Assembly (NCBI GenBank): GCA_964512335.1
Contig: CAZEIA010000001.1
Location: 1 to 60,645, forward strand
Reading direction: 5' to 3'
Origin: an uncultured Desulfobacterales bacterium
GTDB lineage: Bacteria > Desulfobacterota > DSM-4660 > Desulfatiglandales > HGW-15
Length of the DNA stretch: 60,645 bases
The position numbers and the translations under genes are program-made. This document shows, in pieces, positions 4,876-29,031 of the stretch (position 1 is its first letter; each line of letters opens with the position of its first letter). Below the pieces are notes generated by a model. It did not search any database. It saw only the letters and a program-made list of their open reading frames with translations, and was not told the origin of the DNA.

Positions 4876-6246
4876 TCAGTCCCGGGCGGCCTTTTGGGCC
4901 GCATGCAGCCTTTCCCAGGAAAAATCAGGACCTCGGCAGGGGAAGAAGGTGTTGTTGTGATAGAGGGGTTCGTTTCCCAGATCAAACGGAGAGACGGCCT
5001 CGGCCACGGGCCAGAGCTGGGTATTGGGGAGGGGGGAGAACTCGGCGGGATAAGGACGGGCACCGGCGGCACGGACATATTGAGCCGCTGAGATAAGGTC
5101 CTCAGGGTCCTGGTTGGGCAGCCCGTACAGGAGATACACACCTATCTCGGAAGCGTCGAACCCCGCCCTCTTGAGATGGTCGAGGGCGGTCTCGAAGTCA
5201 TCCGGCCCCACCTTCCAGCCCCAGGCTGCCTGTCTCAATGGGTCAGGGGTCTCCAGGCCCAATCTCAGTGTCTTGAAACCGGCTGCGAACATCAGGTCAG
5301 CCATTTCTTGAGTGATCAATCCAACGTGGAGCCCGTTCGGGGCGTGGAAGCGGATCCCGAGGTCGCGGCGGACCACTGATTCCAGAACAGGCAGGATATG
5401 GTCCTGGGCGTTTACCAAAAGAGCATCGTCAAAGAACACGAAGTCGCGGAGGCCCAGGCGGAACCGCCGGTCCTCGATCTCGGCCAGGACTTCTTGAGGC
5501 GGGCGTTGATCGAACCCGGGCTGGAGAATGCCGGAGGCGCAGTAAGGGCAACGGTAAGGGCAGCCCCTGGAAGTAAGGAGCGGAGCAAAATCGAGCTTGG
5601 GGTATAGATCCAGGGCGGGCCAAAGTGAGGTCCAGGGCGTATGGGATTGATCGGTGAGGATCGATCCATGGCTGCTGATCTCATTCAGGATGTCAATTAT
5701 CCGGTCTTCTCCTGGACCGGACACCACCAGGTCCGCCCCTGTGTTGTAGGCCGCATGTGACGGGCAGAGGGTAGCATAGATTCCGCCGAGAATTACAGGG
5801 ACGCCCGGCCATACATCTCTTGCCAGGGTTATGGCCTGGATGATCCCCGGGTACCAGTAGGTCATGATCGAGGTTACCAGGATGGCGTCCGGGGGATCGG
5901 CGTTTCGCACATCGTTTAAAAAGACCTCCTCGGGCAGGCCGTAGCGGGCAAAGCGCCGCGGGATACCCTTCAAAGGCTCCGGAGCGCGCACGATCTCCCG
6001 TCTCCAGGGCCCGGTGCCCGGAAGAACGCCTTTCTTGACCGGGGCGCCGGAGCACGGATGCAGGCGGTCCAGGCAGTCCACCAGGGTGACCCGGCAGCCG
6101 GCCCGGCCTAGAAGGTCCGCCAGGTAGAGCAGACCCAGGGGGCGGGCCCACAAGTCATAGGCGGCGAAGTCGTATATCCAGGGATTGATGGCAAGGATGG
6201 TGGGCGTCATTCCTGAGACTTTAATCCAGCCGCAGTGAATTCTCAA
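4876..6246 (-). CDS. B12-binding-domain radical SAM protein, function unknown
   Basis: CxxxCxxC in TSRGCPYRCPYCAS. The N-terminal region is Rossmann-like (ILAINPWIYDFAAYD..RVTLVDC). TTG start at 6246 is preceded by GGGAGGGG. Confidence 0.8.
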   Translation of the reverse strand: MRIHCGWIKVSGMTPTILAINPWIYDFAAYDLWARPLGLLYLADLLGRAGCRVTLVDCLDRLHPCSGAPVKKGVLPGTGPWRREIVRAPEPLKGIPRRFARYGLPEEVFLNDVRNADPPDAILVTSIMTYWYPGIIQAITLARDVWPGVPVILGGIYATLCPSHAAYNTGADLVVSGPGEDRIIDILNEISSHGSILTDQSHTPWTSLWPALDLYPKLDFAPLLTSRGCPYRCPYCASGILQPGFDQRPPQEVLAEIEDRRFRLGLRDFVFFDDALLVNAQDHILPVLESVVRRDLGIRFHAPNGLHVGLITQEMADLMFAAGFKTLRLGLETPDPLRQAAWGWKVGPDDFETALDHLKRAGFDASEIGVYLLYGLPNQDPEDLISAAQYVRAAGARPYPAEFSPLPNTQLWPVAEAVSPFDLGNEPLYHNNTFFPCRGPDFSWERLHAAQKAARD

Positions 6247-6620: not shown

Positions 6621-7913
6621 CTATTTCATGGTGCTCGGTAACCAAGTGGCAACCTGTGGAAAAAGAGTTATGAGGACTAGAGACAGCAGCATTAAGGCGA
6701 TCATTGGTGCGGCGGCCTTGGCTACCTTGACGATAGATTCATTCGTAACTCCCCGCAAGATAAAAAGATTAAGCCCAACCGGAGGCGTGAACTGCGCTAT
6801 TTCTATCAAGATAACAACATATATACCAAACCAAATGGGATTAAAACCATAGGCATTGACAATGGGAAGTAGCAATGGAATGGTAAGTACCACCATGGAA
6901 AGGCCCTCCAGGATGCAGCCAAGTAGTACATACATACCCGCCAGAATTATAAGGAACTCAATCTTGCTCAGCTCCATGGCCGCGGTGTATTGAACTATGT
7001 CCTGGCCCATCCCGGACTGGGCGAAGGCCATGGAGAGTAGAGAAGCACCAGTAACGATGAACAGAATCATTACACTGGTGCTTATAGTGGCCCGAAAAGC
7101 CTCCAAAAGCTTGGCTATACTGAAGTCGCCACCTAATAGCGCAATTAGGAGGGCTCCCACAACACCCCAGGCAGCAGCTTCGGTGGGAATGATCCAGCCC
7201 AGGTAGATCCCCCCAAGAATGAAGATAATCAGCGAGGAAACCGGAAGCAGGCCAGGAAGGGCGCGAATCCTTTCGCCCCAGGAATACTTCTCCATTACTC
7301 TGCAAACCGGGCGGGCGAAGGTCAGGGAGGCCAGAATCACGTAGCCCACAAATAGAATGCTCATGAGCAGTCCCGGCAGCAAGCCAGCCATAAACAGCCT
7401 GCTGATCGATTCCTCGGCGATAACCCCGTAGAGTATCAGAACAATGCTGGGAGGTATCAGTATGCCCAGGGTGGTGGGCCCGGCCAGGGTGGCCAGGATC
7501 AAGTTGCGATTGTAGCCCCTGTCCACGAGTTTTCTATAGGTCAGCATGGCTATGGCCACACAACTTGAGCTGGACGAGCCGGTAATCGCAGCGAAGAAGG
7601 TGGAACCCAGGATGTTGGTGTGCAACAGGCGTCCTGGGAGCAAGGATGCCCAAGGATCTAAACTGCGGATTGCCAGATCAAAGGCTCGGGTGTTCTCCAA
7701 TATTCTGGCCATCAATATGAACAGGGGTACAGCGGCCAGCGAGAAACTATTGGTGGTGGCCCACATACCATATGCCGAGGTAAGCATTACCTGAGGAGAA
7801 TCCGCCAGTATCAGACCGAACATGCCGGCTCCGGCTAGGGCCAGTGCAATGGGCACATTTAAGGCGATCAGCAGAAATAGGCCACCTATCAGGAGCAAGA
7901 AGTCCACGGGCAT
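6621..7913 (-). CDS. dctM: TRAP transporter large permease
   Basis: 430-aa polytopic membrane protein with a DctM-like sequence. It follows dctQ after a 10-nt gap. Confidence 0.9.
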   Translation of the reverse strand: MPVDFLLLIGGLFLLIALNVPIALALAGAGMFGLILADSPQVMLTSAYGMWATTNSFSLAAVPLFILMARILENTRAFDLAIRSLDPWASLLPGRLLHTNILGSTFFAAITGSSSSSCVAIAMLTYRKLVDRGYNRNLILATLAGPTTLGILIPPSIVLILYGVIAEESISRLFMAGLLPGLLMSILFVGYVILASLTFARPVCRVMEKYSWGERIRALPGLLPVSSLIIFILGGIYLGWIIPTEAAAWGVVGALLIALLGGDFSIAKLLEAFRATISTSVMILFIVTGASLLSMAFAQSGMGQDIVQYTAAMELSKIEFLIILAGMYVLLGCILEGLSMVVLTIPLLLPIVNAYGFNPIWFGIYVVILIEIAQFTPPVGLNLFILRGVTNESIVKVAKAAAPMIALMLLSLVLITLFPQVATWLPSTMK

Positions 7914-7923
7914 CCTCCAGTTT

Positions 7924-8415
7924 TCATTTGGGGCGGCGATCGGGAGTTATCAGCCGCAGGACGAGCTCCAAGGTGAAAAGAAAAAGTCCCAGCACCATGG
8001 CGCCTTGGGGGAGCGCCAGGGGCATCCCCAAAGGGGTGGTTGAATGTGAGCCAACTGAAAAGGTGTTCCACCACATAAGTCCGGCACCTACGGACAAGCA
8101 AGCCACGATGACCAAGCTGACGAGATCGGCCAAAAAACGATTCACTCGCTGTATGTTCGAAGGCAAGGCGTTGTATAGGGTGTCGAATGAAATGTGCGCG
8201 TTCACACGCAAGGCATGGCCGGCTCCCAGGAAAGTGAGCACAACTACCAAGTAACCGGAAAGCTCATCACTTAGCATGGTGGAAATTTTAAAAAATTCCC
8301 GACACACTACCTCCACGATGATGACCATTGTCATACCCAAAAGTGCTATCCCACCACAGTAAATACCTGTCAAGGATGGTGCTTGGGAAAGTTTGCGCAA
8401 TATATTCAGCCACAT
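7924..8415 (-). CDS. dctQ: TRAP transporter small permease
   Basis: 163-aa protein with four predicted TM helices, positioned between dctP and dctM. Confidence 0.85.
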   Translation of the reverse strand: MWLNILRKLSQAPSLTGIYCGGIALLGMTMVIIVEVVCREFFKISTMLSDELSGYLVVVLTFLGAGHALRVNAHISFDTLYNALPSNIQRVNRFLADLVSLVIVACLSVGAGLMWWNTFSVGSHSTTPLGMPLALPQGAMVLGLFLFTLELVLRLITPDRRPK

Positions 8416-8483
8416 TTATTCAACCCCTGTACGTGCGTACGTGCGGACGCCATTCAGACGCCCGCACTCCGGATTCGGCTTTT

Positions 8484-9482
8484 CTAGCGTCCGAGCCTTG
8501 TCTTGAACTCCTTCAGGTACTCCTGGGCGCCTTCTACAGAGGAGGACCATTCCTCCCAGATGGGACCCGCGGCCTCCTCGAAAGCAGCCATAAGGTCCGT
8601 AGGGGGATCCACTATTTTGACTCCCTGGGAAGTAAATTTGGCCTGGGCCTCCTTCATGGCTTTTACCTCGGCCGCCCATTGGGCCTTATTGAACTCCTCG
8701 GCAACCTCCTTCAGAGTCTGTTGGATGTCCTTAGGCAACTTATCGAAGGCTGCTTGGTTCGCCACCAGCCAGCCATCGCTTCCAAAAAAGATGTTAGTGG
8801 AATATACATATTCGACGGCTTCGAAGAGCTTGGCTGAAGCGGCCAAGGTGTAGCTGGTGATGGCGGCATCCACCGTTCCGATGCGTAGCGCTACCGGCAC
8901 CTCCCCGAAGGGCATGCTTACTGGAGTTGCTCCCACTGCCATCATAAGTTTGGGCAGTGAGGTTCCGAACACTCTGACCTTCAGGCCTTTCATGTCGGCA
9001 AGACTCTTGATCTCCTTAGTGGTGAAAAGGACCATAGGATCCCAGACCCATTGAGCCAAGGGCACCACACGCCATTTAGGCCAGACATACTTGTTCAGAT
9101 AGGAATGAGCGACCTCCCGCTGAATGCGGGCTTCCTCGTAGGTCTTGGAGGCAAACGGTAAAGTGCCATACTTGAACCAAGCCTCTTGGCCCTCCAGATA
9201 ACTGATGGTTAATTCATTGGCCGGCACCAGCCCTTGGCTAACGATGTTCAAGGCATCACCCGGGGCATATCCTAGGCCCTTGGAGTAATGAACCTCCAGT
9301 TTGAATTTGCCCTCGGTCCTCTTGGCCACCTCTTCGGCATAGGCCAGCCATTGCTGGGTAGCCCCGTCGCCAGCTGGATGGCTGCCCTGCATTTTCCAGG
9401 TAATGGTGTCCGCTGCGGAGGCGGGAATGGCCGCCATCGCCATCAACAATAGACTCGCCATCGTGATCTTCAATTTCTTCAT
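8484..9482 (-). CDS. dctP: TRAP transporter periplasmic substrate-binding protein
   Basis: DctP-family sequence with signal peptide MKKLKITMASLLLMAMAAIPASA. ATG at 9482 is preceded by GGGAGGA; the track start at 9497 is probably too far upstream. Confidence 0.9.
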   Translation of the reverse strand: MKKLKITMASLLLMAMAAIPASAADTITWKMQGSHPAGDGATQQWLAYAEEVAKRTEGKFKLEVHYSKGLGYAPGDALNIVSQGLVPANELTISYLEGQEAWFKYGTLPFASKTYEEARIQREVAHSYLNKYVWPKWRVVPLAQWVWDPMVLFTTKEIKSLADMKGLKVRVFGTSLPKLMMAVGATPVSMPFGEVPVALRIGTVDAAITSYTLAASAKLFEAVEYVYSTNIFFGSDGWLVANQAAFDKLPKDIQQTLKEVAEEFNKAQWAAEVKAMKEAQAKFTSQGVKIVDPPTDLMAAFEEAAGPIWEEWSSSVEGAQEYLKEFKTRLGR

Positions 9483-9538
9483 GCCGTATCCTCCCATCTT
9501 TCTGTTTTGAGTGAATTAAAAAAGACGCATGAAAAACA

Positions 9539-10516
9539 TCATTGGGAAACCAGGCAATCTACCCCCAACCTTTTGAAAAGGCTCTGTGCACGCTCTACGG
9601 TCCGCTGATCTGCCGCCGGCTTTGCGCCCATGGGGTATTTGCGGGATAAAGCCTCATATTTGCCAACTCCCAGCCTGTGATATGGCATGAGTTCCAGCCC
9701 TTGGCAGCTAGGTCCGCAAGATTTTACAATGCGGCTGGTTTGGGCAATATTTTCTTCGGAGTCGTTAATGTCGGGTACCAAGGGCATCCGGATCAGAAAG
9801 GGCACTTGGCTGTCGGAAACCAGGCGCAGGTTCTGCAGAATAAGATGGTTGTCCCACCCCGTGTGCTTGAAATGCAGGCGGGAATCGGCCAGCTTGATGT
9901 CAAAAAGCACATAATCCACCAGCTGCAAAATATCTGCCAGGGCCTGTCTGCTTCCAGCCCCGCAGGTCTCTAAAGCCGTGTTCAGGCCATCATCGCGCGC
10001 CTTGCTCAGAACCTGGGAGGCAAAAGCCGGTTGGGTAAGCGGCTCCCCGCCCGAAAGCGTCAGTCCGCCTCCGGAGCGTCTGTAAAACGGCCGATCCCTG
10101 ACTACCTCCGCGGCCACTTGCTCCACGGTCATTTCTTGGCCATACAGACGTAGCGCGCCGGGGAAGCATTCATCTTGACACCGGCCACAGCCATCACAAA
10201 GCTCTCTGTGTATGCGGGGTGAGCCGTCCTCCTCCGGGGTCAGAGCCTGGTTGGGGCACCGGTTAAAGCATTGGCCGCAGAGGTTGCACCTTGTGCGGAT
10301 GAAACCCAACTCGGGGCCGAAGTTTTGGGATTCGGGATTGGAGCACCAGTCGCAGGTCAAGGGACAGCCCTTCAAGAACACGATGGTTCGAATCCCGGGC
10401 CCGTCGTGCAAGGAATAGCGTTGTATATTGAACACACACCCTGTGGCCGAGGCTTTTAGGCCTGTTCGACCCAAGTCCTGCTTTGGCGGTAATATAGCGT
10501 TTCCAAGCTCGGGCAA
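9539..10516 (-). CDS. glycyl-radical enzyme activating enzyme (radical SAM, two extra ferredoxin-type clusters)
   Basis: HDGPGIRTIVFLKGCPLTCDWCSNPE is the CxxxCxxC of PFL-AE-like activases. It also carries CNLCGQCFNRCP and CDGCGRCQDEC. It starts 4 nt after the GRE stop. Confidence 0.9.
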   Translation of the reverse strand: MPELGNAILPPKQDLGRTGLKASATGCVFNIQRYSLHDGPGIRTIVFLKGCPLTCDWCSNPESQNFGPELGFIRTRCNLCGQCFNRCPNQALTPEEDGSPRIHRELCDGCGRCQDECFPGALRLYGQEMTVEQVAAEVVRDRPFYRRSGGGLTLSGGEPLTQPAFASQVLSKARDDGLNTALETCGAGSRQALADILQLVDYVLFDIKLADSRLHFKHTGWDNHLILQNLRLVSDSQVPFLIRMPLVPDINDSEENIAQTSRIVKSCGPSCQGLELMPYHRLGVGKYEALSRKYPMGAKPAADQRTVERAQSLFKRLGVDCLVSQ

Positions 10517-10520
10517 CTTC

Positions 10521-12986
10521 TTACAGCTCCTGATTTGTCCTGTTTATGATTTCCTGCTGGATCATCGGGGGCAGGTCCACGAAATATGCGCTATATCCTC
10601 CCACCCTGATCACCAGGTCCCGGAAAGATTCAGGGTCGTCCACCGCCTTGAGCAGGGTTTCCCTGTCCACAATGTTGAATTGGATCTGGTAACCCAGATA
10701 GTCGAAGAAGAAGGTCCGGATCAAAGTTATCAGCTTGGCTATGTTTTGATCGGTATTGAGCATGGCGGCGCTCATCTTCTGGTTGAGAACAGCGCTACGG
10801 TTGGAATGGGTATCCACCGCCTTACCCACCGAACAGATCACCGCGGTGGGGCCCTTGCGATCGGCACCAGCCATGGGCGAAATGCCTCCATCGCTCAAGC
10901 AGTCGTAGGCTTTTCTGCCGTCGGGCAGCGCGCCCACATACTGGCCGTGCTGAAAATGCAGCCCAGCGCCGGATCGCATGTCCTTCACCGGGTAGCCGAA
11001 TGGATTAAGCATGGAGCGTATGTCCTGGGAGTTCCAGTGTGACAGTTCGGACATAACTGCGTCAGGCTCCTCCTCGTCGTTGCCGAATTTGGGTGCGGCG
11101 GAAAGCCTCTCGCGTATGCGCTCGAACTCCGGTCCTTGAAAATTAGACCGGCAAGCCTGTAAGATATCATCCACAGTGAGCCTTTTTTCCTGGTAGGCCC
11201 ACTTATCTATGGCTGAAAGGGCGTCAGCCACATTGGCCCTCACCGGTTCATAGGTGGGCATGTGGCTCTGCGGATAACGGACTCCGTCGCGCAGGACATC
11301 GCGGCCTTTCTGGAGGCAATCATTGGTCAGCGCGGAACAGAAAGGCAGCGCGTGCATCTGGGCTCGCACATGCCAGCCGAAGTTGAATATCTCGTGGAAA
11401 TAGCGGTGAAAGTGCCTTTGTTGCTTCTTCCAGGCCTCGATCCAGTCCTTGATGCCGCCAAAGGACCGGGGGTCACCGGTTTCTAGGCCCACCTGGCGGC
11501 CAGTTCGGGGATCGAAGCCGTTGTACATGACCAATTCCAGGCTCTTGGCCGTATTCAGGGATGGGCCCATGCCATGCATGCCCTCGGATTCAGTGATGTA
11601 TGCATGAACGCAGCCTACACCCGCGTAGTTCCTGGCCTCCTGCACAGGGTATCCGTCTTCCAGGAAGTTCTGGATAATCCTCTTGTCATTCATGAAGGCA
11701 GGGCCGCCGCCCCCGATGACCTTGTTGGCCAGGACGGCGTAGTAGAGAAGCTCATCCGGACTCTGTTCGTGCACTCTTACATACACACCTACCCGCAGTT
11801 TCAGTTCATGGACCACCCTGAGAATGTTATAGGTGAGCTCCCGGGTGGCGTCTTCGCCCTCCTTGTCCACCCCGCCTAAAAATATATGAGTCCCAGTGTT
11901 GCCCGGGCCTATCTGTGTCCATACCTCTCCGGTCTTTAGGTTATCCATCTCGTTAATTTTAAGTACCAAAAGCGCAAGCAGCTCCAGGGCTTGGGCCCTT
12001 GTAACCCGCCCGTCTGCCAAGTCCCTCTCATAAAATTCATTGAGCAGTTGATCCAATCGTCCCAGGATCTCACCAAAGCCGGCGGTCTCCAGATTTAGCC
12101 CCAGTTGCACAAAGCGCAGACTTTGGATGGCCTCGCGGAAGGTCCTGGCTGGATGCTCAGGCACCCTTCGGCAGATATGCGCTATCTCCAGAAGTTCCTC
12201 GCGTCTCGTTGGGTCTGGTTCGGTCATAGCCAAGCTTTCGGCCAGGTCAGCATAACGGCGAGCGTAATCCACCAGAGCCTCAAGGGTGATTACCGTCGCT
12301 TGCAACATGCTGTACTTCTCCAGGTCCTCGTGCTTCTGGAAATTGAGCCGTCCCATCTCCTGCTTGGCCTCAGCGATTATGCCGGTCAAGCCATTTTTCA
12401 GAACTTTCTCGTAATTTGCGCCCCGGCCGAGCCCCCAGGTTCCCTCAAAGGGGCGGCACAGTATGATGCCTGAGGTGGCTAATTGGGAGATATCGATGTC
12501 GAAGCGTTCATTGATCCTTTCAAATAGCTTGTCCTGAGGGTTGCGAGGCTTCCAGTAGGCCAGATTTTCCTTGATCATTTCCAGATTGTGATCGTCCAGC
12601 TCGCATGGGGCTCCGGTGCCCAGAATGAGGTTGCCTTCTAGAATGGCTTCGCTTACTCCGGTGGTCCAGTCATCAAAGGTGTGGGCGCCCTTTACGCAAT
12701 CGGTTTGAGAACCTACCACCAGTTCCTGATCGAAAATACCGATTGGTACCTCGCGGCAGATGCGGGCAAAAACCTTGGCTCGCCGTACATATATGTGGTC
12801 ACCCTCGGATTCCTGCCAGGCTCGGGCGGCGGCTCGTGAGCGGTGACCCCGGATTACAGTACGGGCGGCGCTCCATTCTTGTTTGCGCTTTTTGACTCTT
12901 TCGGTCAAAACCGGAATCTTGTATATTCGTTCGACAATTGCATTGATACCTTGGGAATGGTCCAGTTTTCTAGCTGTAGACTCCAT
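10521..12986 (-). CDS. glycyl radical enzyme, PFL2/eliminase-like fold, substrate unknown; atypical Cys loop G-C-V-H
   Basis: C-terminal glycyl radical motif IRVGGYSAYFVDL..QQEIINRT (Gly797, codon 10596-10598). Cys loop AGVGCVHAYITESEG (Cys459 codon 11610-11612; His461 codon 11604-11606). N-terminus is typical of the PFL2 class (VRRAKVFARICREVPIGIFDQELVVG). Confidence 0.9.
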   Translation of the reverse strand: MESTARKLDHSQGINAIVERIYKIPVLTERVKKRKQEWSAARTVIRGHRSRAAARAWQESEGDHIYVRRAKVFARICREVPIGIFDQELVVGSQTDCVKGAHTFDDWTTGVSEAILEGNLILGTGAPCELDDHNLEMIKENLAYWKPRNPQDKLFERINERFDIDISQLATSGIILCRPFEGTWGLGRGANYEKVLKNGLTGIIAEAKQEMGRLNFQKHEDLEKYSMLQATVITLEALVDYARRYADLAESLAMTEPDPTRREELLEIAHICRRVPEHPARTFREAIQSLRFVQLGLNLETAGFGEILGRLDQLLNEFYERDLADGRVTRAQALELLALLVLKINEMDNLKTGEVWTQIGPGNTGTHIFLGGVDKEGEDATRELTYNILRVVHELKLRVGVYVRVHEQSPDELLYYAVLANKVIGGGGPAFMNDKRIIQNFLEDGYPVQEARNYAGVGCVHAYITESEGMHGMGPSLNTAKSLELVMYNGFDPRTGRQVGLETGDPRSFGGIKDWIEAWKKQQRHFHRYFHEIFNFGWHVRAQMHALPFCSALTNDCLQKGRDVLRDGVRYPQSHMPTYEPVRANVADALSAIDKWAYQEKRLTVDDILQACRSNFQGPEFERIRERLSAAPKFGNDEEEPDAVMSELSHWNSQDIRSMLNPFGYPVKDMRSGAGLHFQHGQYVGALPDGRKAYDCLSDGGISPMAGADRKGPTAVICSVGKAVDTHSNRSAVLNQKMSAAMLNTDQNIAKLITLIRTFFFDYLGYQIQFNIVDRETLLKAVDDPESFRDLVIRVGGYSAYFVDLPPMIQQEIINRTNQEL

Positions 12987-13005
12987 TATTATCCTCCTTT
13001 GAGCC

Positions 13006-13836
13006 TCAGGGCCTTTTTTGGGCTAATGGTTTAGACTGCAACCCGCCGCCAAAAAAATTGGAGGCTTTTGCGACCGCTTCCTGTAACATGTCTACTACTG
13101 AAATTGTTTTAGCGTTGATGCGTTCTTTGGGGCCGGCTACCGTCAGACTTCCCACCACGGACATGTCGTTTTTGAATACCGGTGCGGCGATCGCCGTCAC
13201 CCCTAGATTGACTTCTTGGTCGGCAATGTAGTAGCCCTGCCTGCGTATGGTTTCCAGTTGGGCCTCAATTGCTTCCCTGAAAACCGGGGTATAGGGGGTC
13301 AAGGGTTCCATGCGGGCTTCCTCCAGATACTGCTCTATAAAATCAGGCTCCTGAAAGGCCAGCAGAACCTTTGAGGCTGCGCCTGCATACAAGGGCAGAC
13401 TGGTGCCCACTTCCAGACTCAATTTGATGAGTTGCCTGGACTCCTTCTTTACCAGGCAGACCCCGTGAAAACCACGGCGCACCGTGAACAGAATGGTTTC
13501 GTCCAGTGCTTCCAGGAGTTGTTCCATATAGAAGACCACACCTTCCACAAAATCCGTGGGACTTCCTGCCACATCCCCCAGTTGGGCTAGCATGAACCCC
13601 ACTCGGTAGTGCTTGTCCTTGCTGTTGCGCATTAAAAACCCAGCGTCCACAAGGGTTTCAAGATAACGGTAGATGGTGCTGTGAGGGAGGCCTACTCGAT
13701 CAGCCAGCTTACGGGCCGTTAGTTCGTTGTCTTCATTGTTGAAGCAGCTTAGGATCTCCAACCCTTTCTGGAGTGCTGCGATCTTTTTCTGGCTCATTGT
13801 TCTTGCCTGGTGAGATAACTGTCTTTCTCTGTGCAT
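13006..13836 (-). CDS. IclR-family transcriptional regulator
   Basis: N-terminal winged HTH (ALQKGLEILSCF..LTARKLADRVGLPHSTIYRYLETL) plus an IclR effector domain. It ends 19 nt upstream of the GRE start. The start is uncertain (13836 or 13797). Confidence 0.85.
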   Translation of the reverse strand: MHRERQLSHQARTMSQKKIAALQKGLEILSCFNNEDNELTARKLADRVGLPHSTIYRYLETLVDAGFLMRNSKDKHYRVGFMLAQLGDVAGSPTDFVEGVVFYMEQLLEALDETILFTVRRGFHGVCLVKKESRQLIKLSLEVGTSLPLYAGAASKVLLAFQEPDFIEQYLEEARMEPLTPYTPVFREAIEAQLETIRRQGYYIADQEVNLGVTAIAAPVFKNDMSVVGSLTVAGPKERINAKTISVVDMLQEAVAKASNFFGGGLQSKPLAQKRP

Positions 13837-14632
13837 AATAAGTGAATCGGATTCATTGAGTCAAGTAATTTTTTTGCCAAGCGGAAACCATCCATCTATG
13901 GTTCAAATGGCCGCACAGTTTTAGAATCCATGACCCTGGAGGGCTCCCGCCCTATCATATGGGCAGCGCCAACGAGAAAAATGAAACTGCTAGCCTAGCT
14001 TAATTCCAGTTGATAATGATGGTTCTTAAATTATTATAATATATATTTATTTATTATATAGACTAGCATTTAAATGTAATTTTAAGCGTCGTTAGAAAGA
14101 TATTAAAAGTATTTAGGTGCAATTAAAATGAGTGATAATGGTAGAATAGATCCGTGCAAATGAAAGCCCGCCGGTTTTACATGAATACGGTTCGATATGT
14201 CGAGCGGCCTTTTTGGGCCGTACTCATGCTGTACCTGGCAAAGCAGCACTTCCCTGCTTATTGAACATTCGAAGATAAGCCTTCGGGTCCTGGTCGAAGC
14301 CGTTTTCCCAAGGAGGGAGTTGTCTCCGATGAAATTTTCTGGTTTTCGAGGATAGGGCTGTACCACCGGCGGATTCGTACCATCCCAAACTTTCATGATT
14401 CGGCAAGAATCACATAGGCAATAACCTACTGAGACAGAGTCCGGTTTTTAGGCGTCAAGAAGGGGGTAACCTTACTTGTGCAATGGCCGTGGGCTTGGTG
14501 ATTTTGGCTCCATTCTTTTCTGGATACCCCCTGCTGCTACCCTCTTGGAAACCTTGAAAGTGTGCCTTGTGCTGTGCCTATCAGGTAGCAAATTCCAAAA
14601 AATCCCCAACATTTCCAAAGACTTTCTGACAT

Positions 14633-14819: not shown

Positions 14820-16328
14820 TTAGGCGTGCTCCATTTTGACGGCTGCCCGGTCGATCATGCCCTCATCGGTCTTGGGCAGAGATTCGACATAAACAACATG
14901 CCTGGGCTTTTTGTATCCGGCCAAACGCGAAGCGACAAAGGCGGCCAATTCTTCCTCGTTTTGCGAAGCCCCGGCCCGCAGAACACATACCGCCTTGACG
15001 GCTTCGCCCCACCGGTCATCAGGCACGCCTATGACGCAGACCTCCGTTATGGAATCATGCTCCCGCAGGACCTGTTCCACTTCGGCGGGATAGACATTCT
15101 CACCTCCTGTCTTAATCAATTCCTTGGCGGGCATGCGGCCTGCGTAAAATAGATATCCCTGGTCATCCATACGGCCCATATCACCGGTGTGGTGCCAGCC
15201 GTTTCGGAGGGTCCAAGCCGAGTCCTCCTCCAGCCCCCGGTAACCAAGGAAAACACAGGGCGATTTTACGCAGATCTCCCCGACCGTGTTCACACCTACT
15301 TCGTTTTCTGCCTCGTCCACGATTCTTATTCTGGCCAGTGGAGCTGGACGGCCTGCACTGTCAGGCATATCCTCCAACCAGCCGATTGTTACGCTCATGG
15401 CTTCTGTCTGTCCGAACATGACGCTGAATCTGGCCTGGGGGGCAATCTGTTGAAACCGCTGGATTGATTCAGGGGGGTTCAGACCTCCAATGAATTTGAG
15501 GCTTTCCAATCTCCTCTTCTTTTCCTCCTGCTTATCGACCAGGTGTTCGAGCATCGGTGGAAAGCTGTACATTATGGTGGCCTTTTCCCTCTCTATCAAA
15601 TCCAGGGTCTGATCGGCGTCGAATTTTTCTTGAATTACATTTTTCCCTCCCGCCTGCATGACGGCCATGGAGAGGGAGAGCCCTGCTATGTGAAACAGCG
15701 GCAGAAAACAGGGGTGAGCATCAGAAGGACCCAGATTGAAATAGCAGCCCAGGGAGGTGCTGATGGCTGCAATATTGCCCTGGCTGAGTTCGGCTCCCTT
15801 GGATCGACCGGCCACTGCAGCGGTATATATGATTGCATAGGGCGCCGCAGCGGGGACTTCCGCTTCGCTCACTACGCTACAGTCATAAAGGGACTCAAGC
15901 GGAGCATAGCTCCCCTGTGCCTTCCGCCCGACGACATAGCGGGATTTTACGGATAACAGGCCAGTCTCCGCCTGAAGGCTTATTTCATGGAAGTCAGGGG
16001 AAACCACCAGGAAGGCGGGAGAGGAGTTTTCAAAAATGTATTGAAGCTCTCCGGGGCTCAAACGCCAGTTGACCGGCACCACAACGAACCCGCCCAAGGC
16101 CGCTGCTCCGTAAAGAAGCATGTACTCGAGACTGTTATGGGCGATCAGGGCGATGCGGTCGCCCGGCAGTGCGCCTGCGGCCTGGAAGCCTCCGCACAAT
16201 CGCCGGCATGCCTCCAGGTAACCGGCAAAGGTCACCCTGCTCGATCCATAGACAAGGGCTTCACGTTCGGGGAATACCTGGGCGTTTCTCATAATCATGT
16301 CCATGAGGCTGAAATCGCGAACAGTCAT
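14820..16328 (-). CDS. ANL-superfamily (AMP-dependent synthetase/ligase-like) protein with degenerate core motifs
   Basis: ANL motifs GQTEA, HHTGDMG and GRMPAKELIKTGGENV are present. The P-loop reads YTAAVAGRSKGA and the C-terminal motif reads LPKTDEGMIDR, with Met where the A10 Lys is expected. Confidence 0.8.
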   Translation of the reverse strand: MTVRDFSLMDMIMRNAQVFPEREALVYGSSRVTFAGYLEACRRLCGGFQAAGALPGDRIALIAHNSLEYMLLYGAAALGGFVVVPVNWRLSPGELQYIFENSSPAFLVVSPDFHEISLQAETGLLSVKSRYVVGRKAQGSYAPLESLYDCSVVSEAEVPAAAPYAIIYTAAVAGRSKGAELSQGNIAAISTSLGCYFNLGPSDAHPCFLPLFHIAGLSLSMAVMQAGGKNVIQEKFDADQTLDLIEREKATIMYSFPPMLEHLVDKQEEKKRRLESLKFIGGLNPPESIQRFQQIAPQARFSVMFGQTEAMSVTIGWLEDMPDSAGRPAPLARIRIVDEAENEVGVNTVGEICVKSPCVFLGYRGLEEDSAWTLRNGWHHTGDMGRMDDQGYLFYAGRMPAKELIKTGGENVYPAEVEQVLREHDSITEVCVIGVPDDRWGEAVKAVCVLRAGASQNEEELAAFVASRLAGYKKPRHVVYVESLPKTDEGMIDRAAVKMEHA

Positions 16329-16462
16329 TCTCGGCTCCTCTCCGTTGGAATTTACAGATTATGCATCTGTCCTCTTAAAGACCCAAGAGACTTTGGCAGA
16401 GCTGATTTTCGAGAATAGCAGAACTGAACAAGACACAGGTGTATCGTTTGATCGCTGTCATA

Positions 16463-17299
16463 TTATTTCAGCCCCAGCCTGTGGAGCCAGTCAAAGACAA
16501 CCTTTTCCAGGGACCTTTCCGCGCCTATGTAGTAGTGGTCTCCACCTGGAATGATGGCGAATTCGCGAGGATCAGCCCTGACGGCATGTTCATACACGAG
16601 CCGGCTGTATTCCATGAACATCGAATCGCGTTCACAGATGGTGATCAAGATAGGGATGTCCAGCTCGTCTATGTACCCACACATATCCATGCTGGTGCTT
16701 GGGCCCCAAACGGAAAGGAATGTCCTGGCCGTGCAGATAATAGGTGAGGGTCCGTGGTGCCGGAAGATGACAAACCGTTCTCCCTGTCCGGTATTGACCA
16801 GATCGGTGGCATCACTTACGGCCTTGTCATATTGCACGTCCAGATAGTATTTCCACGCGTCCCTCATCAGTACCGGAGGGGTGCAAAGGATCAATGAGAT
16901 GACATCGGGATCCGGTTTCAGGAAATGGGAGTAGACAACTTTGGACGTACCATAGCTGTGCGCGATAACAACCAGCCGCCGGTATCCCCTTTGCTTCAAC
17001 AAACGCAGCCCGGCGGCGATATCCTTGGGGCTGTCCTCAAACTGCTCTTTCAGCAGGCCGATGCAAGGTTCTCCGTCAGCCACTGTACCGTAATCATGGC
17101 CACGGTTGTTGAGCGAAAGGCACGCAATGCCGTTCGCTGCGAGTGCACCGGGTAAAAATCTTCCCAGGCCTGTATAAAAGTTACCCCATGCTCCGTGAGT
17201 GACAAGAGAGGCTGTCGGTGAGGGGGCTTCAGGCTCGTAAAGTGCTCCGTCAAGCCTTACTCCATCTTCTGTGCGGGTGCTGACCAAGTCAATCTGCAT
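16463..17299 (-). CDS. alpha/beta-fold hydrolase
   Basis: Nucleophile elbow VVIAHSYGTS. Overall alpha/beta hydrolase pattern over 278 aa. Confidence 0.65.
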   Translation of the reverse strand: MQIDLVSTRTEDGVRLDGALYEPEAPSPTASLVTHGAWGNFYTGLGRFLPGALAANGIACLSLNNRGHDYGTVADGEPCIGLLKEQFEDSPKDIAAGLRLLKQRGYRRLVVIAHSYGTSKVVYSHFLKPDPDVISLILCTPPVLMRDAWKYYLDVQYDKAVSDATDLVNTGQGERFVIFRHHGPSPIICTARTFLSVWGPSTSMDMCGYIDELDIPILITICERDSMFMEYSRLVYEHAVRADPREFAIIPGGDHYYIGAERSLEKVVFDWLHRLGLK

Positions 17300-19278: not shown

Positions 19279-20067
19279 TCAACGTCCCGTGAAGGCCGGT
19301 TTCCTCTTCTCCAGGAAGGCGGATGCAGCTTCTTTGTGGTCCTCTGTCTTGTAACAAAAGGCATTTATATTGGCCTCGAACGCAACGCTGTCCTGCAGGG
19401 TGCTGACGGCACCTTGGCGAAGCGCCGCTTTGCTTAATCCCACTGCCAGTGGAGGAAGTCCGCATATTCGGCGGGCAAGGTCAAAGGCGGTATCCAGCAC
19501 GGTATCATCATTTACTACACTGTTTACCAGACCGATCCTTTCCGCTTCAAGGGCATTAAACCTGCGGGCTGTAAGGACCAGTTCCATAGCCCTTCCCAGG
19601 CCCGCCAGTAACGGCAGCATATGGGAGCAACCGATCTCTGGAATGATGCCCATCATGGGAAACTCTGCTCCGAAGGTGGTGCTTTCAGCAGCTATTCTCA
19701 TGTCGCAAAGCAAGGACAGGCCAAAGCCGGCTCCCAGTGCGTACCCGTGAAGGGCACCTATAATGGGCTTCCGGACGCGGGTCAGAAATGTGAGCTTGTC
19801 AAAGAGATCGTTCAAATGGTTTCGTGTTTCAAGATGGCTCTGCTTGCTTATTGCCTTAAGAAATGAGACATCCCCACCCGCGCAAAATGCGCGTCCCTTG
19901 CCACTCAGTACAACAGCCCTCACTTCCTGATTCTTGTCAATCTCGGCAAAACAGGCATAGAGTTCATCAACCATCTCCTGGTTAATGGTATTCATGGCTT
20001 CTTGACGGTTAAGCTGTACATGGATTATGTCAGGCTCTGAATGAATCAAAAGCGTATTATATTGCAT
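19279..20067 (-). CDS. enoyl-CoA hydratase/isomerase (crotonase) family protein
   Basis: Crotonase motifs (VLSGKGRAFCAGGDV, GALHGYALGAGFGL). ATG at 20067 is preceded by AGGAGGA; the longer track ORF start is unlikely. Confidence 0.85.
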   Translation of the reverse strand: MQYNTLLIHSEPDIIHVQLNRQEAMNTINQEMVDELYACFAEIDKNQEVRAVVLSGKGRAFCAGGDVSFLKAISKQSHLETRNHLNDLFDKLTFLTRVRKPIIGALHGYALGAGFGLSLLCDMRIAAESTTFGAEFPMMGIIPEIGCSHMLPLLAGLGRAMELVLTARRFNALEAERIGLVNSVVNDDTVLDTAFDLARRICGLPPLAVGLSKAALRQGAVSTLQDSVAFEANINAFCYKTEDHKEAASAFLEKRKPAFTGR

Positions 20068-20564
20068 AGTGTCCTCCTGAAATAATAAAATTGCCTTAAG
20101 ATGCGGATAATGCTGAAGAGGGCCGTGGCCCGAAACCGCCCTCCCGCCGCTTCCCCGCACTGGAAAATCCAGGCCCTTCGCGCCGGCATTCCCGTACCTA
20201 TCCACAAATCATAAACGTCATGACCGCGTGGCGCAGGAACCTGCTTCATGTAACAACCTCATGGGCTATACCGCAAACAGGGAATTGGGTCGTAATGGAG
20301 CCGTTTCAGGCCAATGACAGCCGAACGATTGTTCGGTCGTAACGATATCAATTAAGTGGGAGGCTGTCAAATTTTTTGTGTTCATGAGACAAAATGCGGA
20401 ATCCGCCATCCGAACGAGAGCCTGAATCGACCCGGACTATCTTGGGCTCAACATAGGAATACTGCATAAATATATGATATAATACATATAATAGTCGGAA
20501 TGAGAACTGTGCCGGAGAAAGGGCCATTGAGCGTCCAAGAATAAAGGCTCTTTCCAAAATTTTC

Positions 20565-20610
20565 TTGACATGGGTTCTCCTGCCTTAGTAATGTTTCCGA
20601 ACATATGTTC
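20565..20610 (+). promoter_or_regulatory. candidate sigma70 promoter overlapped by a perfect 12-bp palindrome (putative TetR operator)
   Basis: TTGACA at 20565-20570, TAGTAAT at 20586-20592, then GAACATATGTTC at 20599-20610. A related half-palindrome TGAACATTGTATTCA lies about 25 nt downstream. An extended -10 TGATATAAT also occurs at 20475-20483. Confidence 0.4.
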
Positions 20611-20779
20611 TCAAAATAAAAAATATGAACATTGTATTCAGATATCCCCACAAAATTTTACACCCCGATCCACACGACCCCCTGCGAATTGGACAGGCGA
20701 TGCGGCTCTGTTGTTACGGCCTTATTCTGTTCAATTCACTGACTCGAGCTTAAAGATCTTTTTAAGGGTGATACCCATT

Positions 20780-21376
20780 ATGGATAAGCAAGAATTAGTC
20801 AAAGCAAAACAGGCCCAGATACTACGAGCGGCTCAAGATCTGTTTGCAAAAAAAGGTTATCACAAGACATCCGTTCGGGATATTGCTAAAAGCTCAGGAA
20901 TGAGTGTTGGATCGTTGTATGATTATATCAAGAACAAGGAAGATATATTATATTTATTAGGCAAGGAATTTCTTGATAATCTTCAGAATGAAGTTGACAA
21001 AGTCCTTGCAGGAGGCTATGGCATACGGGAGGAATTAGAGGGTACCGTTAAGGTTATGCTGAAACTTATTGATCGCTATCAAGAATATACGTTGTTTGCT
21101 TACAGAGATTCCAAGTATCTAAAAAAGGAGCATTTGAAAGCACTGATGAGTCAGGATGACTATTTCACAGAAACCTTTACTTCTATTATAAAAAAAGGTA
21201 TAGACAAAGGGATATTTGAGACGCAAGAGGCAGAAATAGTATCAATAATGCTTACTATGATGACTCATACTTGGGCTTTAAAGCGTTATATTCTGAGGAA
21301 ATATCCGTTTTTTATTTTTGAAAAGACCCTTTTGAGGTTTCTTTTGTGCGGACTGCAGAAAGACTGCAACGAGTGA
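20780..21376 (+). CDS. TetR/AcrR-family transcriptional regulator
   Basis: HTH ILRAAQDLFAKKGYHKTSVRDIAKSSGMSVGSLYDYIKNKEDIL. ATG at 20780 is in frame with the track ORF. Confidence 0.85.
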   Translation: MDKQELVKAKQAQILRAAQDLFAKKGYHKTSVRDIAKSSGMSVGSLYDYIKNKEDILYLLGKEFLDNLQNEVDKVLAGGYGIREELEGTVKVMLKLIDRYQEYTLFAYRDSKYLKKEHLKALMSQDDYFTETFTSIIKKGIDKGIFETQEAEIVSIMLTMMTHTWALKRYILRKYPFFIFEKTLLRFLLCGLQKDCNE

Positions 21377-21388
21377 AAGCAGGCAATT

Positions 21389-22408
21389 ATGGCTTTGGAT
21401 AACATTTTGAAAGGATTACGTGAAGGCAAGACCGGTGCGGCATCAAGGCTCATTACCCTGTTGGAAATGGGCAATGATCACCAAATTGACAGGATCATGG
21501 AAGAGGTCTACCCGAAGACTGGCCATAGCTGGGTTGTTGGAGTGACTGGCCCGGCCGGGGCGGGAAAGAGCAGCCTGCTGAACAACCTGATTTATCAGGT
21601 GCGAAAACAAGGTAAGACAGTGGGTGTGATACTGGTTGATCCCACCAGCCCCTTATCAGGCGGGGCGGTGCTGGGGGATCGCATACGCATGAGTTCCTTT
21701 TCCAGGGATGAAGGCGTATTTATCCGGTCCATGGGATCCCGGGGGAACTTGGGTGGACTTTCCATTGCCACATTGGGGGCTGTACGAATTCTGGACTATT
21801 TGAGGAAAGACTTTATTTTCGTTGAAACTGTTGGCACAGGGCAAGTAGATATCAATATCTGTGATATTGCAGATACAGTTTGTCTTGTACTGATGCCGGG
21901 CGCAGGTGATGTAATCCAATCACTTAAGGCTGGCGTAAGAGAAGTTAATGATATTTTCGTTGTTAACAAATGTGATAGACCTGGCGCTGAAGAGACATCT
22001 CTTAATATTGAAGTTATCATAGATATTCTTGAAAAAAAATTGGATCGCGATTTTATATGGGATGTTCCAATATGCTTAACAAATTCACTTACAGGTGATG
22101 GTATTGAAGCCCTCTGGGAGAAAATTAATGAACATTGCCATAAGTCTGAAGGCAGCGAGTTTAGAAAAGAAAGGAAAAAGGTGCAGGCCAAAAAAGAAAT
22201 CGTTGAGATCATACTCAGAAAATTAGAGAAATTCTTTCGAAGGCAGGTGGAAGAGAAGATGGATTTGGATGATATCCTTGGAGATGTTGTACTCAAGTCA
22301 AAGAGCCCCCAGAGGGCCAGTGAAGAGATCTTCTCCAGGATTGCACACTTGGATTTGACACTTTCACAACTGGCGGATGGAAGAGAGGGAGAGTCTGTAG
22401 GAGACTGA
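21389..22408 (+). CDS. meaB: MeaB/ArgK-type G-protein chaperone of AdoCbl mutases
   Basis: P-loop GPAGAGKSSL, ETVGTGQ and NKCD motifs. It lies immediately upstream of the mutase large subunit. Confidence 0.85.
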   Translation: MALDNILKGLREGKTGAASRLITLLEMGNDHQIDRIMEEVYPKTGHSWVVGVTGPAGAGKSSLLNNLIYQVRKQGKTVGVILVDPTSPLSGGAVLGDRIRMSSFSRDEGVFIRSMGSRGNLGGLSIATLGAVRILDYLRKDFIFVETVGTGQVDINICDIADTVCLVLMPGAGDVIQSLKAGVREVNDIFVVNKCDRPGAEETSLNIEVIIDILEKKLDRDFIWDVPICLTNSLTGDGIEALWEKINEHCHKSEGSEFRKERKKVQAKKEIVEIILRKLEKFFRRQVEEKMDLDDILGDVVLKSKSPQRASEEIFSRIAHLDLTLSQLADGREGESVGD

Positions 22409-22440
22409 ACCTGTTCTTTGATCCTGATGGAGGTTTTTTT

Positions 22441-24159: not shown

Positions 24160-24201
24160 TTCCTGGAATCTAAATGAACTTTTCCTTGGAGGGCTACGAT
24201 A

Positions 24202-24591
24202 ATGGAACGCAAAACGGTTCGGATTCTCATGACCAAGGCTGAGCAGGATTGTCACGACAGGGGTGTCCGATACATTACCACTAAGTTGAGAGAGGCAGGA
24301 TTCGAGGTTATATACACCAATTTTCTGTATCCGGAAGAAATTGTCAATACAGCCGTTCAGGAAGATGTTGATGTGATTGGCCTTTCCAGTTCCACGCTGG
24401 GGCATATCCAGGTGCTGAGTCATGTCAAGGCAGGTTTAAAAGAAGAGGGTCTTGACGACATCCTCATCATGGTTGGCGGTGTTGTTCCGGACGACGACCT
24501 GTCGAAGCTGTCGGATTTGGGGATCCACGCCTTGTTTGGGCCGGGGACCACGGCCAACGAGGTAATTGATTTTATAAAATCAAATACTTGA
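24202..24591 (+). CDS. mutase small subunit, B12-binding domain (base-off/His-on)
   Basis: DxHxxG (DCHDRG), SxL (SSSTLGH) and GG (MVGGVVP) motifs in a 129-aa protein. Confidence 0.85.
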   Translation: MERKTVRILMTKAEQDCHDRGVRYITTKLREAGFEVIYTNFLYPEEIVNTAVQEDVDVIGLSSSTLGHIQVLSHVKAGLKEEGLDDILIMVGGVVPDDDLSKLSDLGIHALFGPGTTANEVIDFIKSNT

Positions 24592-24715
24592 GGCTTTGAA
24601 AAGAACCTGCCCACCCACCGCCGGGCAGGCCGTAACCGGTCAGGATTACAGGGGAGGATGACCTGCTTTGCGGCTCTTTCCTGCCCTCTCAAACGTTATT
24701 CTGGAAGGTCAATGT

Positions 24716-25207: not shown

Positions 25208-25221
25208 GAGGAAGGCGAAAA

Positions 25222-25683: not shown

Positions 25684-25892
25684 GCATTAATATGACCACG
25701 AATCCGGCTCGAAAATGATTCTTTGGGTTGCAGCCCCTGGTTTTGAGATCTGCGTTAATATTGTCGATATGTTAGGGACTTCCCGAAGGCGGCTGAACCT
25801 TTTTTGCCAGGCCGTCGGTTTTACCTGTGAAGCGCTGTTTGTAAATTTTGGAAGCTATCGGCCGAATGTATGCGGGGAGGGGAGAGGCTATT

Positions 25893-27035: not shown

Positions 27036-27094
27036 AAGCGATTTTTAACCTACGCTCCAAGCGCGAGAAAAAATTTAAGAAAAGGAAAGCCGGC

Positions 27095-29028: not shown

Positions 29029-29031
29029 TTG

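Follow-up and report, generated by a model that had tools for sequence, protein, structure and literature searches.

Isethionate and 2,3-dihydroxypropanesulfonate (DHPS) loci combine a regulator with a glycyl radical enzyme (GRE; IseG/IslA and HpsG), a ferredoxin-domain activase and a tripartite ATP-independent periplasmic (TRAP) transporter of the DctPQM type. In these GREs a glutamate stands two positions after the catalytic cysteine (C-x-E), and the same is true of every 1,2-eliminase and isomerase characterised so far (six C-O eliminases, CutC, three C-S lyases and three isomerases), a set comprising GD, PD, HypD, HpyG, HpzG, HpfG, CutC, IslA, IseG, HpsG, HplG, YbiW and PflD (Imrich et al., June 2026, PMC13450708). 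In the eliminases this Glu hydrogen-bonds to the substrate or deprotonates it (PMC13450708). A cassette of the same layout lies on the minus strand at positions 6621-13836 of a 60,645-nucleotide stretch of DNA from an uncultured Desulfobacterales bacterium (contig CAZEIA010000001.1 of assembly GCA_964512335.1), the whole of which is called the window here. Its GRE does not follow the C-x-E pattern of the 1,2-eliminases and isomerases and has a histidine, His461, in place of the Glu. The cassette is very probably a self-contained, substrate-induced module that imports and converts one organic anion. Judged by its sequence the GRE belongs to no characterised clade, and its substrate and reaction are probably new.

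The GRE gene (10521-12986, minus strand) encodes a protein of 821 aa with a PFL2-class fold and matches to the Pfam families PFL-like and Gly_radical (E = 8e-29). The catalytic Cys459 and His461 lie in the motif GVGCVHAY and the radical Gly797 in RVGGYSAYF, positions named in the sequence-only reading of this DNA and seen both in the translation and in the codons. The Cys loop, V457-G-C459-V-H461-A-Y463, is encoded at 11598-11618 (minus strand) by gta ggc tgc gtt cat gca tac, with tgc gtt cat at 11612-11604, and the His461 codon, CAT, is two substitutions from any Glu codon. The glycyl radical motif (10539-10607, minus strand), R794-V-G-G797-Y...L805...Q810..I813..R816, carries over residues 794-816 the full GRE fingerprint, which is RVxG[FWY]x6-8[FL]x4Qx2[IV]x2R (PMC13450708). 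Cys459 and Gly797 are both invariant in 71 sequences; since Gly797 is kept, the protein is not an aminoacyl radical enzyme (AARE), where the glycine is changed to Ala, Ser or Thr. The AlphaFold model, which had been proposed as a check, is confident (71-sequence alignment, pLDDT 93.4, pTM 0.93) and puts Cys459 at the tip of the Cys finger, a beta-hairpin at 455-463 within the 10-stranded barrel fold of the PFL-like GREs, and Gly797 at the tip of the other finger hairpin. By these motifs the Gly797-Cys459 radical relay is intact.

His461 had been put forward as the residue at Cys+2 where characterised enzymes have Glu, and two kinds of alignment agree on this. In HMMER pairwise alignments it falls on the Cys+2 Glu of all seven references (HypD, HplG, HpsG, IseG, GD, PD and CutC), with vgCvHay aligned to sgCvEtg of HypD, cgCiEpq of HplG, sgCtEtr of HpsG, sgCtEar of IseG, igCvEpq of GD and PD, and mgCvEpq of CutC. 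It also stands in the Glu column of a MAFFT alignment of 217 GREs, and no Glu takes its place. The HpsG reference, 6LON, has a generic PFL2-family name in its deposition and is assigned to HpsG from the review (PMC13450708). A 71% identical ortholog and most members of the clade retain His461, which rules out a sequencing error.

There is no C-x-H enzyme among the characterised GREs in the June 2026 review (PMC13450708), nor was a characterised one found in the literature to September 2026 on TRAP-linked GREs, histidine bases, and sulfolactate, tartrate, itaconate or tricarballylate. The review agrees with the earlier statement that the characterised eliminases and HPAD carry Glu at this position, and outside that set the characterised PAD and AAD are Glu-less. 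Among the decarboxylases HPAD has Glu505 and IAD Glu502, PAD has an essential Gln484, and AAD differs (PMC13450708). The AAD loop (7E7L) is GCVLH in the HMMER alignment. In PAD the catalytic Cys is Cys482, which places Gln484 at Cys+2. The loops of the X-succinate synthases (XSS) are reported to lack the Glu as well.

The placement of the GRE outside the characterised clades, as the sequence-only reading had it, is supported by profiles, structures and the absence of C-x-H from the review. None of the NCBIfam equivalog cut-offs is reached: the bit scores and cut-offs are 469/1000 for HpsG, 445/1100 for HypD, 394/1050 for CutC and 364/1000 for HpfG, and the GRE is not a member of either decarboxylase equivalog (IAD 381/1100, HPAD 283/1150). 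The last two scores bear on family membership and not on whether the GRE acts as a decarboxylase. The PFL2-3 subfamily model TIGR01774 gives 514 bits against a cut-off of 678. Solved PFL2-class structures match with E values of about 1e-105 at best and with 26-30% identity; the fold search does not discriminate between them, since all match equally well with a TM-score of about 0.9. The protein was correctly described as not PFL-like, having a single Cys where pyruvate formate-lyase (PFL) has a Cys-Cys pair and scoring 81 bits on the PFL model TIGR01255 (cut-off 994).

The Cys loop was called non-canonical, which holds against the characterised enzymes and fails against the uncharacterised relatives, since Glu is absent from about half of the nearest representatives. 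Among 217 relatives Cys+2 is Glu in 94, His in 29, Thr in 17, Asp in 15 and Tyr in 14, the rest having Ser, Gly, Asn, Val, Gln, Arg or Leu. Of 15 billion proteins reduced to representatives at 50% identity, the nearest 150 include 71 with Glu, 17 with His, 14 with Gln, 8 with Asp and 8 with Ser, and in the nearest 40 His (12) outnumbers Glu (8). A neighbour-joining tree places the protein in a clade of 23 members (18 His, 2 Arg and 3 Asn at Cys+2), nested within a superclade of 57-76 GREs that holds one or two Glu in all. Because the superclade carries His, Thr, Tyr, Gln, Leu, Ser, Val, Met or Trp at Cys+2, this residue is not a conserved base in the lineage. The GCVH loop is, on these comparisons, the marker of a sizeable unexplored branch and not a unique anomaly.

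Members of this branch come from metagenome-assembled genomes of Chloroflexota, Dehalococcoidia, Syntrophus, Oscillospiraceae, Acidobacteriota and Desulfobacterota. The strand motif D/S-x-R671-x-G-x-x-x-H677 extends throughout the superclade, and the C-x-H clade has in addition RVGGYS, Arg291, Arg730 and the insertions N421, Q573 and G700. Gly796, before the radical Gly (window about 10599-10601), is specific to the clade, the C-x-E GREs having Ala or Ser there. Arg291 (about 12114-12116) is also clade-specific, with Trp or Tyr elsewhere, as is Arg730 (about 10797-10799), with Asn or Gly elsewhere. Other uncharacterised Glu-less clades have the R671/H677 strand motif, RVGGYS and a non-Glu Cys+2 residue in common with the window protein, but this protein and its 71% ortholog form a branch of their own, with Arg188 and the loop HAYITESEGMHGMG, and IclR and TRAP genes accompany these two alone. 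Dehalococcoidia and Acidobacteriota also have GREs in large, uniform groups (L020-L038 and others; L025 8295-10709 is one example) whose Cys loop reads GCVTPI or GCVYPC and whose strand reads ISREGLSWH. Every one of them is without the Cys+2 Glu and none is characterised.

The active site was mapped from HMMER alignments to ligand-bound structures (1r8w, 6vxc, 9f3w), with residue roles from the review (PMC13450708). The general acid, His164 in GD and His160 in HypD, beside the CutC Asp216 position, is replaced by Arg188 (12423-12425, minus strand) on strand beta1. GD Ser282/HypD Asp278 becomes Gly305, followed by Glu306, a position at which most members of at least 43% identity have an acidic residue. 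GD Tyr339/HypD Phe340 becomes Gly365, the position of GD Asp447/CutC Thr502 is at about Gly472, and GD Glu435 becomes His461. By this mapping the pocket changes extend beyond Cys+2, with the positions of GD His164, Ser282, Tyr339 and Asp447 all replaced, and the protein is not a canonical eliminase.

Arg188 is proposed to be the anchor for the anionic group of the substrate. It lies in the motif WGLGRGANY, which is in exact register only in the window protein and the 71% ortholog; other subclade members (at least 43% identity) have His or Arg in or beside the Arg188 column. On the same strand, Arg176 of PFL binds the pyruvate carboxylate. A carnitine- or choline-type trimethylamine (TMA) lyase was considered and ruled out, as Arg188 beside the CutC Asp216 position would repel a quaternary amine.

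Three independent ungapped registers, as well as the MAFFT column, set the sulfonate-binding Arg of the C-S lyases (IslA 678, IseG 676, HpsG 672) against Met670. The likeness to isethionate lyase loci claimed for this cassette thus stands for the layout and not for this Arg, and with Met670 at the beta8 site the sulfonate triad (beta1 Arg and Gln, beta8 Arg) is incomplete. The beta1 Arg/Gln pair is not conserved in register, in a region that HMMER left unaligned; a PDB fragment search with residues 150-230 gave chance matches alone and did not place a counterpart of IseG Arg187/Gln191. The clade-conserved Arg671 was tried as the counterpart of the IslA sulfonate Arg and rejected, since the registers of 7KQ3, 5YMR and 6LON give Met670; the strand-facing pattern, in which Arg671 would face away from the pocket, contradicts it as well.

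The inward residues of the last strand appear to be Met670, Ser672, Ala674 and Leu676. In the strand-facing comparison GD Tyr640 corresponds to Ser672 and HypD Thr645 to Ala674, and Gln707, Val709 and Leu711, the inward residues of benzylsuccinate synthase (BSS), correspond to Ser672, Ala674 and Leu676; Met670 is judged inward from the IslA-like Arg. Other residues likely to face the pocket are Ile359, Gly305 and Gly365, so that the lining would be mostly small or apolar with one Arg. The pocket is predicted to be roomier than those of GD, HypD, CutC and IslA, largely apolar, and furnished with one Arg and the Cys-loop His.

Compared with the known systems, the GRE has likenesses to several without matching any. 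IseG, IslA and HpsG have the same PFL2-class fold (TM-score 0.87-0.89) and also take an anionic substrate, but their loop is GCTE against GCVH, the identity is 27-29%, and the window DctP matches the isethionate binder IseP weakly (9e-18). GD and PD (1R8W, 5I2A, 9RCO) and HypD (6VXC) are the top matches in sequence and structure (TM-score 0.90-0.91) and have the single Cys, the glycyl radical domain and the activase type in common with it, whereas every aligned active-site position is altered and the cassette has no microcompartment genes. HPAD, IAD, PAD and AAD act on free carboxylates, and none of them has C-x-H. In HPAD and IAD the Cys+2 residue is a proton donor rather than a base, and PAD and AAD have no Glu. 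Decarboxylase pocket residues include Glu505 and Glu637 in HPAD and Arg226, Glu502 and His514 in IAD. IAD has a hydrophobic pocket with one Arg; IAD and AAD need no small subunits, and the cassette encodes none. No aromatic-acid genomic context was found for the window GRE. The XSS enzymes BSS and MASS are the most alike among solved structures in the C-terminal barrel strand region and in the DGG insertion, but their overall similarity is the lowest of the PFL2-class structures (26% identity, TM-score 0.85-0.87), and the window GRE is without small subunits. The earlier remark that no XSS small-subunit genes are present is borne out, since intergenic gaps of at most 68 nt leave no room for them and no extra open reading frames (ORFs) are found in the window or in the two ortholog loci, L001 and L002.

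The cassette consists of six tightly packed ORFs in the order IclR-GRE-activase-DctP-DctQ-DctM, with gaps of 19, 4, 41, 68 and 10 nt from IclR to DctM. All of them lie where the sequence-only reading had put them, and Pfam and NCBIfam back the family of each protein. The first gene (13006-13836, minus strand; 276 aa as listed) encodes an IclR-family regulator in which both the N-terminal winged helix-turn-helix and the C-terminal IclR effector domain are matched in Pfam (HTH_IclR and IclR_C; PF09339, PF01614). In NCBIfam it comes nearest to the PcaR/PcaU/PobR subfamily, whose cut-off it does not reach (148 bits), and its top PDB match is 1mkm (E = 7e-27). The ORF is as first described, but its start at 13836 is doubtful and the ATG at 13797 (MSQKK...) is the more probable one, because a promoter-like site overlaps the upstream ATG and the ortholog regulator has 254 aa. 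This site, TTGACT-18-TATTAT (13864-13835, minus strand), lies just upstream of the IclR gene and comes from a consensus scan (10/12 matches, a pattern match alone). In an alignment of the upstream regions of the window and the 71% ortholog no common operator or palindrome was found. Between the genes for the acyl-CoA ligase and IclR, about 110 nt (14000-14110) are very AT-rich and hold several promoter-like hexamers; this tract may be a boundary of the inserted cassette.

A strong Shine-Dalgarno sequence, AAGGAGG, precedes the GRE start. The activase (9539-10516, minus strand; 325 aa) is a radical SAM protein with the Pfam domains Radical_SAM, Fer4_12 and Fer4, and scores 351 bits on the GRE-activase model TIGR02494 (cut-off 174). 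The CPLTCDWC motif is present in its translation, and its ferredoxin-like insert holds two extra 4Fe-4S motifs. The remaining genes encode a complete DctPQM-type TRAP system, with a family-7 solute-binding protein and a small and a large permease, for which NF037995 scores 95 (cut-off 50). DctP (8484-9497, minus strand; 337 aa) belongs to a very divergent lineage of its family; it matches Pfam DctP and NCBIfam TRAP_S1 and carries the motif GLKVRV. DctQ (7924-8415, minus strand; 163 aa; Pfam DctQ), the small permease, has an ortholog in L001 and L002, and DctM (6621-7913, minus strand; 430 aa; Pfam DctM), the large permease, scores 307 bits on TIGR00786 (cut-off 268). The top PDB matches of DctP are 2pfy and 2pfz at 2e-27. 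Only two relatives above 30% identity, besides the protein itself, occur among 5.8 billion proteins, one on the contig of the GRE ortholog and the other on a 1.7-kb contig with DctQ; with so few relatives and such distant solved ones (about 2e-27), no ligand can be inferred from DctP.

The exact cassette is very rare, being present in the window, in one 71% ortholog and in one short contig fragment. The closest relative of the GRE, P0002, has 71% identity, and the next are at about 50%. P0002 is found on two assemblies, L001 and L002, in the same gene order, IclR-GRE-activase-DctP-DctQ-DctM, and with unrelated flanks (CRISPR-Cas, Fic), so the six genes move as a unit and no linked downstream enzyme is required. 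The ortholog activase is split into two ORFs in L001 (12565-13433) and intact in L002 (3603-4535), another assembly of the same sequence; the split is probably an assembly frameshift. Species-representative genomes contained no relative closer than 43% identity and no further cassette copy, and two metagenome scans gave no new relative above 50% and likewise no further copy. Among 1.84 billion representatives, clusters of at least 40% identity numbered no more than a handful.

Relatives at about 48-50% identity adjoin an uptake system in every case in which enough flank was recovered. P0005 adjoins TctCAB together with a GntR regulator and a LUD-domain protein, and P0003 and P0007 adjoin ABC binding proteins, while the contig of P0006 is too short to judge its context. 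The P0007 locus (L003) encodes a member of the TcuA tricarballylate dehydrogenase equivalog (15279-16754; 500 bits, cut-off 369), and besides the ABC binding protein it has genes for electron transfer flavoprotein, KstD-like flavoproteins and succinate dehydrogenase, a GRE pair and an activase. PrpD-family proteins are encoded beside P0009, P0014 and L018, and AcnX beside P0011. P0014, which has the GCVH loop, is directly preceded by genes for an aldehyde:ferredoxin oxidoreductase (AOR) and a 2-oxoacid:ferredoxin oxidoreductase, and AOR copies are also found in L018 and, in the window, 5 kb from the cassette. A group with the loop GCSHPY lies near between two and four genes for family III CoA-transferases and near genes for SBP_bac_5, NAD-dependent epimerase and enoyl-CoA hydratase. 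Taken together, the neighbourhoods indicate that the clade acts on carboxylic acids imported in free form, and some of its substrates are probably polycarboxylates.

Further GREs with the GCVH loop, in L008-L010 (the GRE of L008 at 8370-10802) and L011, are flanked by MmgE/PrpD-family genes; the flanks of L008-L010 add AOR, 2-oxoacid:ferredoxin oxidoreductase, a ferredoxin, an FrhB-like protein and a GntR regulator. At some loci of the 40-50% relatives (L003, L005, L006, L012, L013, L041) a single activase gene accompanies two or three GRE paralogs in tandem, and the paired GREs of L003 (7737-12746) differ in their Cys loop, GCVR against GCVH. Such tandem paralogs could form heteromers or catalyse consecutive radical steps.

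In the proposed scheme, DctP would bind an anion and the TRAP system would import it, most likely a carboxylate with a fairly large, mainly apolar body. The activase would place the radical on Gly797, and Cys459 would then become the thiyl radical. Arg188 on strand beta1 would hold the anionic group, which His461 would face from the Cys loop, donating a proton or a hydrogen bond to the carboxylate and not replicating the general base of the eliminases. The thiyl radical would oxidise the bound carboxylate with loss of CO2, the His461 imidazolium would reprotonate the thiolate, and the resulting Cys-SH would quench the product radical. Radical decarboxylation of this HPAD/IAD (Kolbe) type is the single most likely reaction, and it is proposed tentatively. 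It is ranked first because Cys+2 varies through Leu, Val, Met and Trp in the superclade, which indicates no dependence on a base, and because the characterised PFL-like GREs without Glu are the decarboxylases PAD and AAD (PFL and TdcE having a Cys-Cys pair, and the XSS enzymes being reportedly Glu-less too). IAD loci reportedly also consist of a GRE, an activase and a transporter. The third reason is the geometry of IAD, where a cryo-EM preprint of 2026 has the substrate carboxylate against the catalytic Cys and the Cys+2 acid reprotonating the thiolate (PMC13232127); an imidazolium would suit both this role and an anionic ligand. The IAD pocket is hydrophobic with Arg226 (PMC13232127), and the predicted pocket of the window GRE, apolar with one Arg, recalls it.

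Several points weigh against decarboxylation. The whole-sequence score is nearer to eliminases (HpsG 469 and HypD 445 bits) than to IAD (381) or HPAD (283), and His461 could equally be a general base in an elimination. The contexts of the 40-50% relatives, with PrpD, TcuA, AcnX and AOR as well as family III CoA-transferases and enoyl-CoA hydratases, have no obvious fit with it, and the window shows no evident physiological gain from importing and decarboxylating an acid. The Arg of the DctP motif GLKVRV is only a candidate counterpart of Arg147 of SiaP, the carboxylate clamp.

The GRE may instead be a new 1,2-eliminase or isomerase for a hydroxy- or amino-substituted organic acid, with His461 replacing Glu as the general base, a doubtful reading ranked just behind decarboxylation. 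Cys459 would take the hydrogen next to the OH or NH group and Arg188 would bind the anionic or leaving group, in keeping with its location at the leaving-group position of GD, HypD and CutC. A Glu would clash with the carboxylate of such a substrate, which could account for the His, and a keto acid or aldehyde product would go straight to central metabolism, so that the cassette would need no downstream genes. HpsG and HypD give the top profile scores, propanediol and glycerol dehydratases are the closest structures, and an AOR gene directly precedes the P0014 GRE, with others in L018 and the window. Among characterised PFL2-class GREs that have a dedicated transporter, the majority are eliminases, but C-x-E is without exception in the 15 or so characterised eliminases and isomerases (PMC13450708). 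The positions of the general acid His164 and of the substrate contacts Ser282 and Asp447 are replaced too, and a superclade that accepts Leu, Val, Met or Trp at Cys+2 argues against an essential base. A further proposal, decidedly unlikely, is a C-S lyase that would cleave a carboxylated sulfonate (3-sulfolactate or cysteate) to pyruvate and sulfite as an independent analogue of IslA/IseG/HpsG. The GRE-activase-TRAP layout of the isethionate and DHPS loci and the leaving-group position of Arg188 favour it, and in a sulfite-reducing host its products would require no more cassette genes. However, the sulfonate-clamping Arg is Met670, the beta1 Arg/Gln pair is out of register, the HpsG equivalog score of 469 is below the cut-off of 1000, the known C-S lyases are all C-x-E, and there is no sign of sulfite respiration within the window.

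XSS-related C-C chemistry without small subunits seems rather unlikely. A C-H substrate would be added to fumarate or another enoate, or in the reverse sense a tricarboxylate or substituted succinate would be cleaved, and the dicarboxylate would enter through the TRAP system. Segment 621-740 has TutD (first) and MasD (third) among its best PDB matches, the DGGISP insertion (G700) is common to the window GRE, TutD, MasD and PflD, and the superclade has no acid/base residue at Cys+2. Some relatives lie beside family III CoA-transferases, enoyl-CoA hydratases and short-chain dehydrogenases/reductases, which together resemble the bbs genes, others beside TcuA, PrpD, AcnX and TctCAB, and the window has CoA genes near the cassette (acyl-CoA ligase, MeaB, B12-dependent mutase, dehydrogenases and enoyl-CoA hydratase). 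Yet genes for beta, gamma or delta subunits are missing, BSS and MASS are the least similar of the PFL2-class matches over the whole protein, the 71% ortholog has no CoA-pathway genes next to it, and the pocket apparently has one cationic residue. In BSS the fumarate-binding Arg508 is at about Cys+15, and residues 460-480 of the window GRE (VHAYITESEGMHGMGPSLNTA) contain no Arg. That the GRE is an inactive or decaying paralog, or His461 an assembly artefact, with no new chemistry, is extremely improbable: nothing direct speaks for it except that L001 splits the activase into two ORFs, and the activase of L002 is intact. The radical-relay motifs and all six ORFs are intact, the GRE is preceded by a strong Shine-Dalgarno sequence, the His is conserved in the ortholog and the clade, and the model is of high confidence. 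The rest of the probability falls to chemistry outside these readings. It is conceivable, if unlikely, that the GRE belongs to a new class outside all seven current ones, acting on imported polycarboxylic or other organic acids with the eliminase Glu changed to His. One example would be radical C-C formation or cleavage linking simple acids and fumarate to tricarboxylates, and TcuA, PrpD, AcnX and TctCAB near the relatives hint at substrates akin to tricarballylate or aconitate.

NrdD/NrdG-like genes, a TonB-dependent receptor, AOR and B12-dependent radical SAM enzymes mark the host as a Gram-negative anaerobe. A second glycyl-radical system, at 45456-48324 (minus strand), consists of a class III NrdD (721 aa, ATP-cone) followed by a small NrdG-like radical SAM protein. 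A B12-binding radical SAM enzyme (4876-6246, minus strand; 456 aa) lies downstream of dctM after a gap of about 375 nt and is absent at the ortholog locus. Upstream of the cassette, a large region of acyl-CoA metabolism (14820-36881) has on the minus strand genes for acyl-CoA ligase, a hydrolase, CobO, 3-hydroxyacyl-CoA dehydrogenase and enoyl-CoA hydratase. On the plus strand are a divergent TetR, MeaB and the large and small subunits of a B12-dependent acyl-CoA mutase; the same strand also encodes two acyl-CoA dehydrogenases, a second 3-hydroxyacyl-CoA dehydrogenase, and a Liv-type ABC transporter accompanied by an AMP-binding protein. The region resembles pathways downstream of alkylsuccinates or of branched acids or acyl-CoAs, but since these genes are missing beside the 71% ortholog they are taken as neighbouring metabolism and not as part of the cassette. 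The GC content is mostly 0.44-0.51 at 20001-38000 (0.54 in one 2-kb window) against 0.52-0.62 elsewhere, and the GC skew is strongly positive from about 20 kb on, coincident with the switch to plus-strand genes.

The characterised GREs have each opened a new anaerobic reaction, among them the formation of TMA, H2S, p-cresol, skatole and toluene and the activation of hydrocarbons, and whole GRE clades are still unassigned (PMC13450708). The cassette does not overturn current understanding, and is a well-defined target for the discovery of GRE function. With one regulator, one enzyme, one activase and a high-affinity binding protein that can be used to find the substrate, it offers a compact and tractable entry to the large Glu-less branch of the GREs. 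The identity of the substrate would test whether C-x-E is a requirement of elimination or a feature of the clades studied so far, and could add a reaction to anaerobic carbon cycling in sediments and the subsurface.

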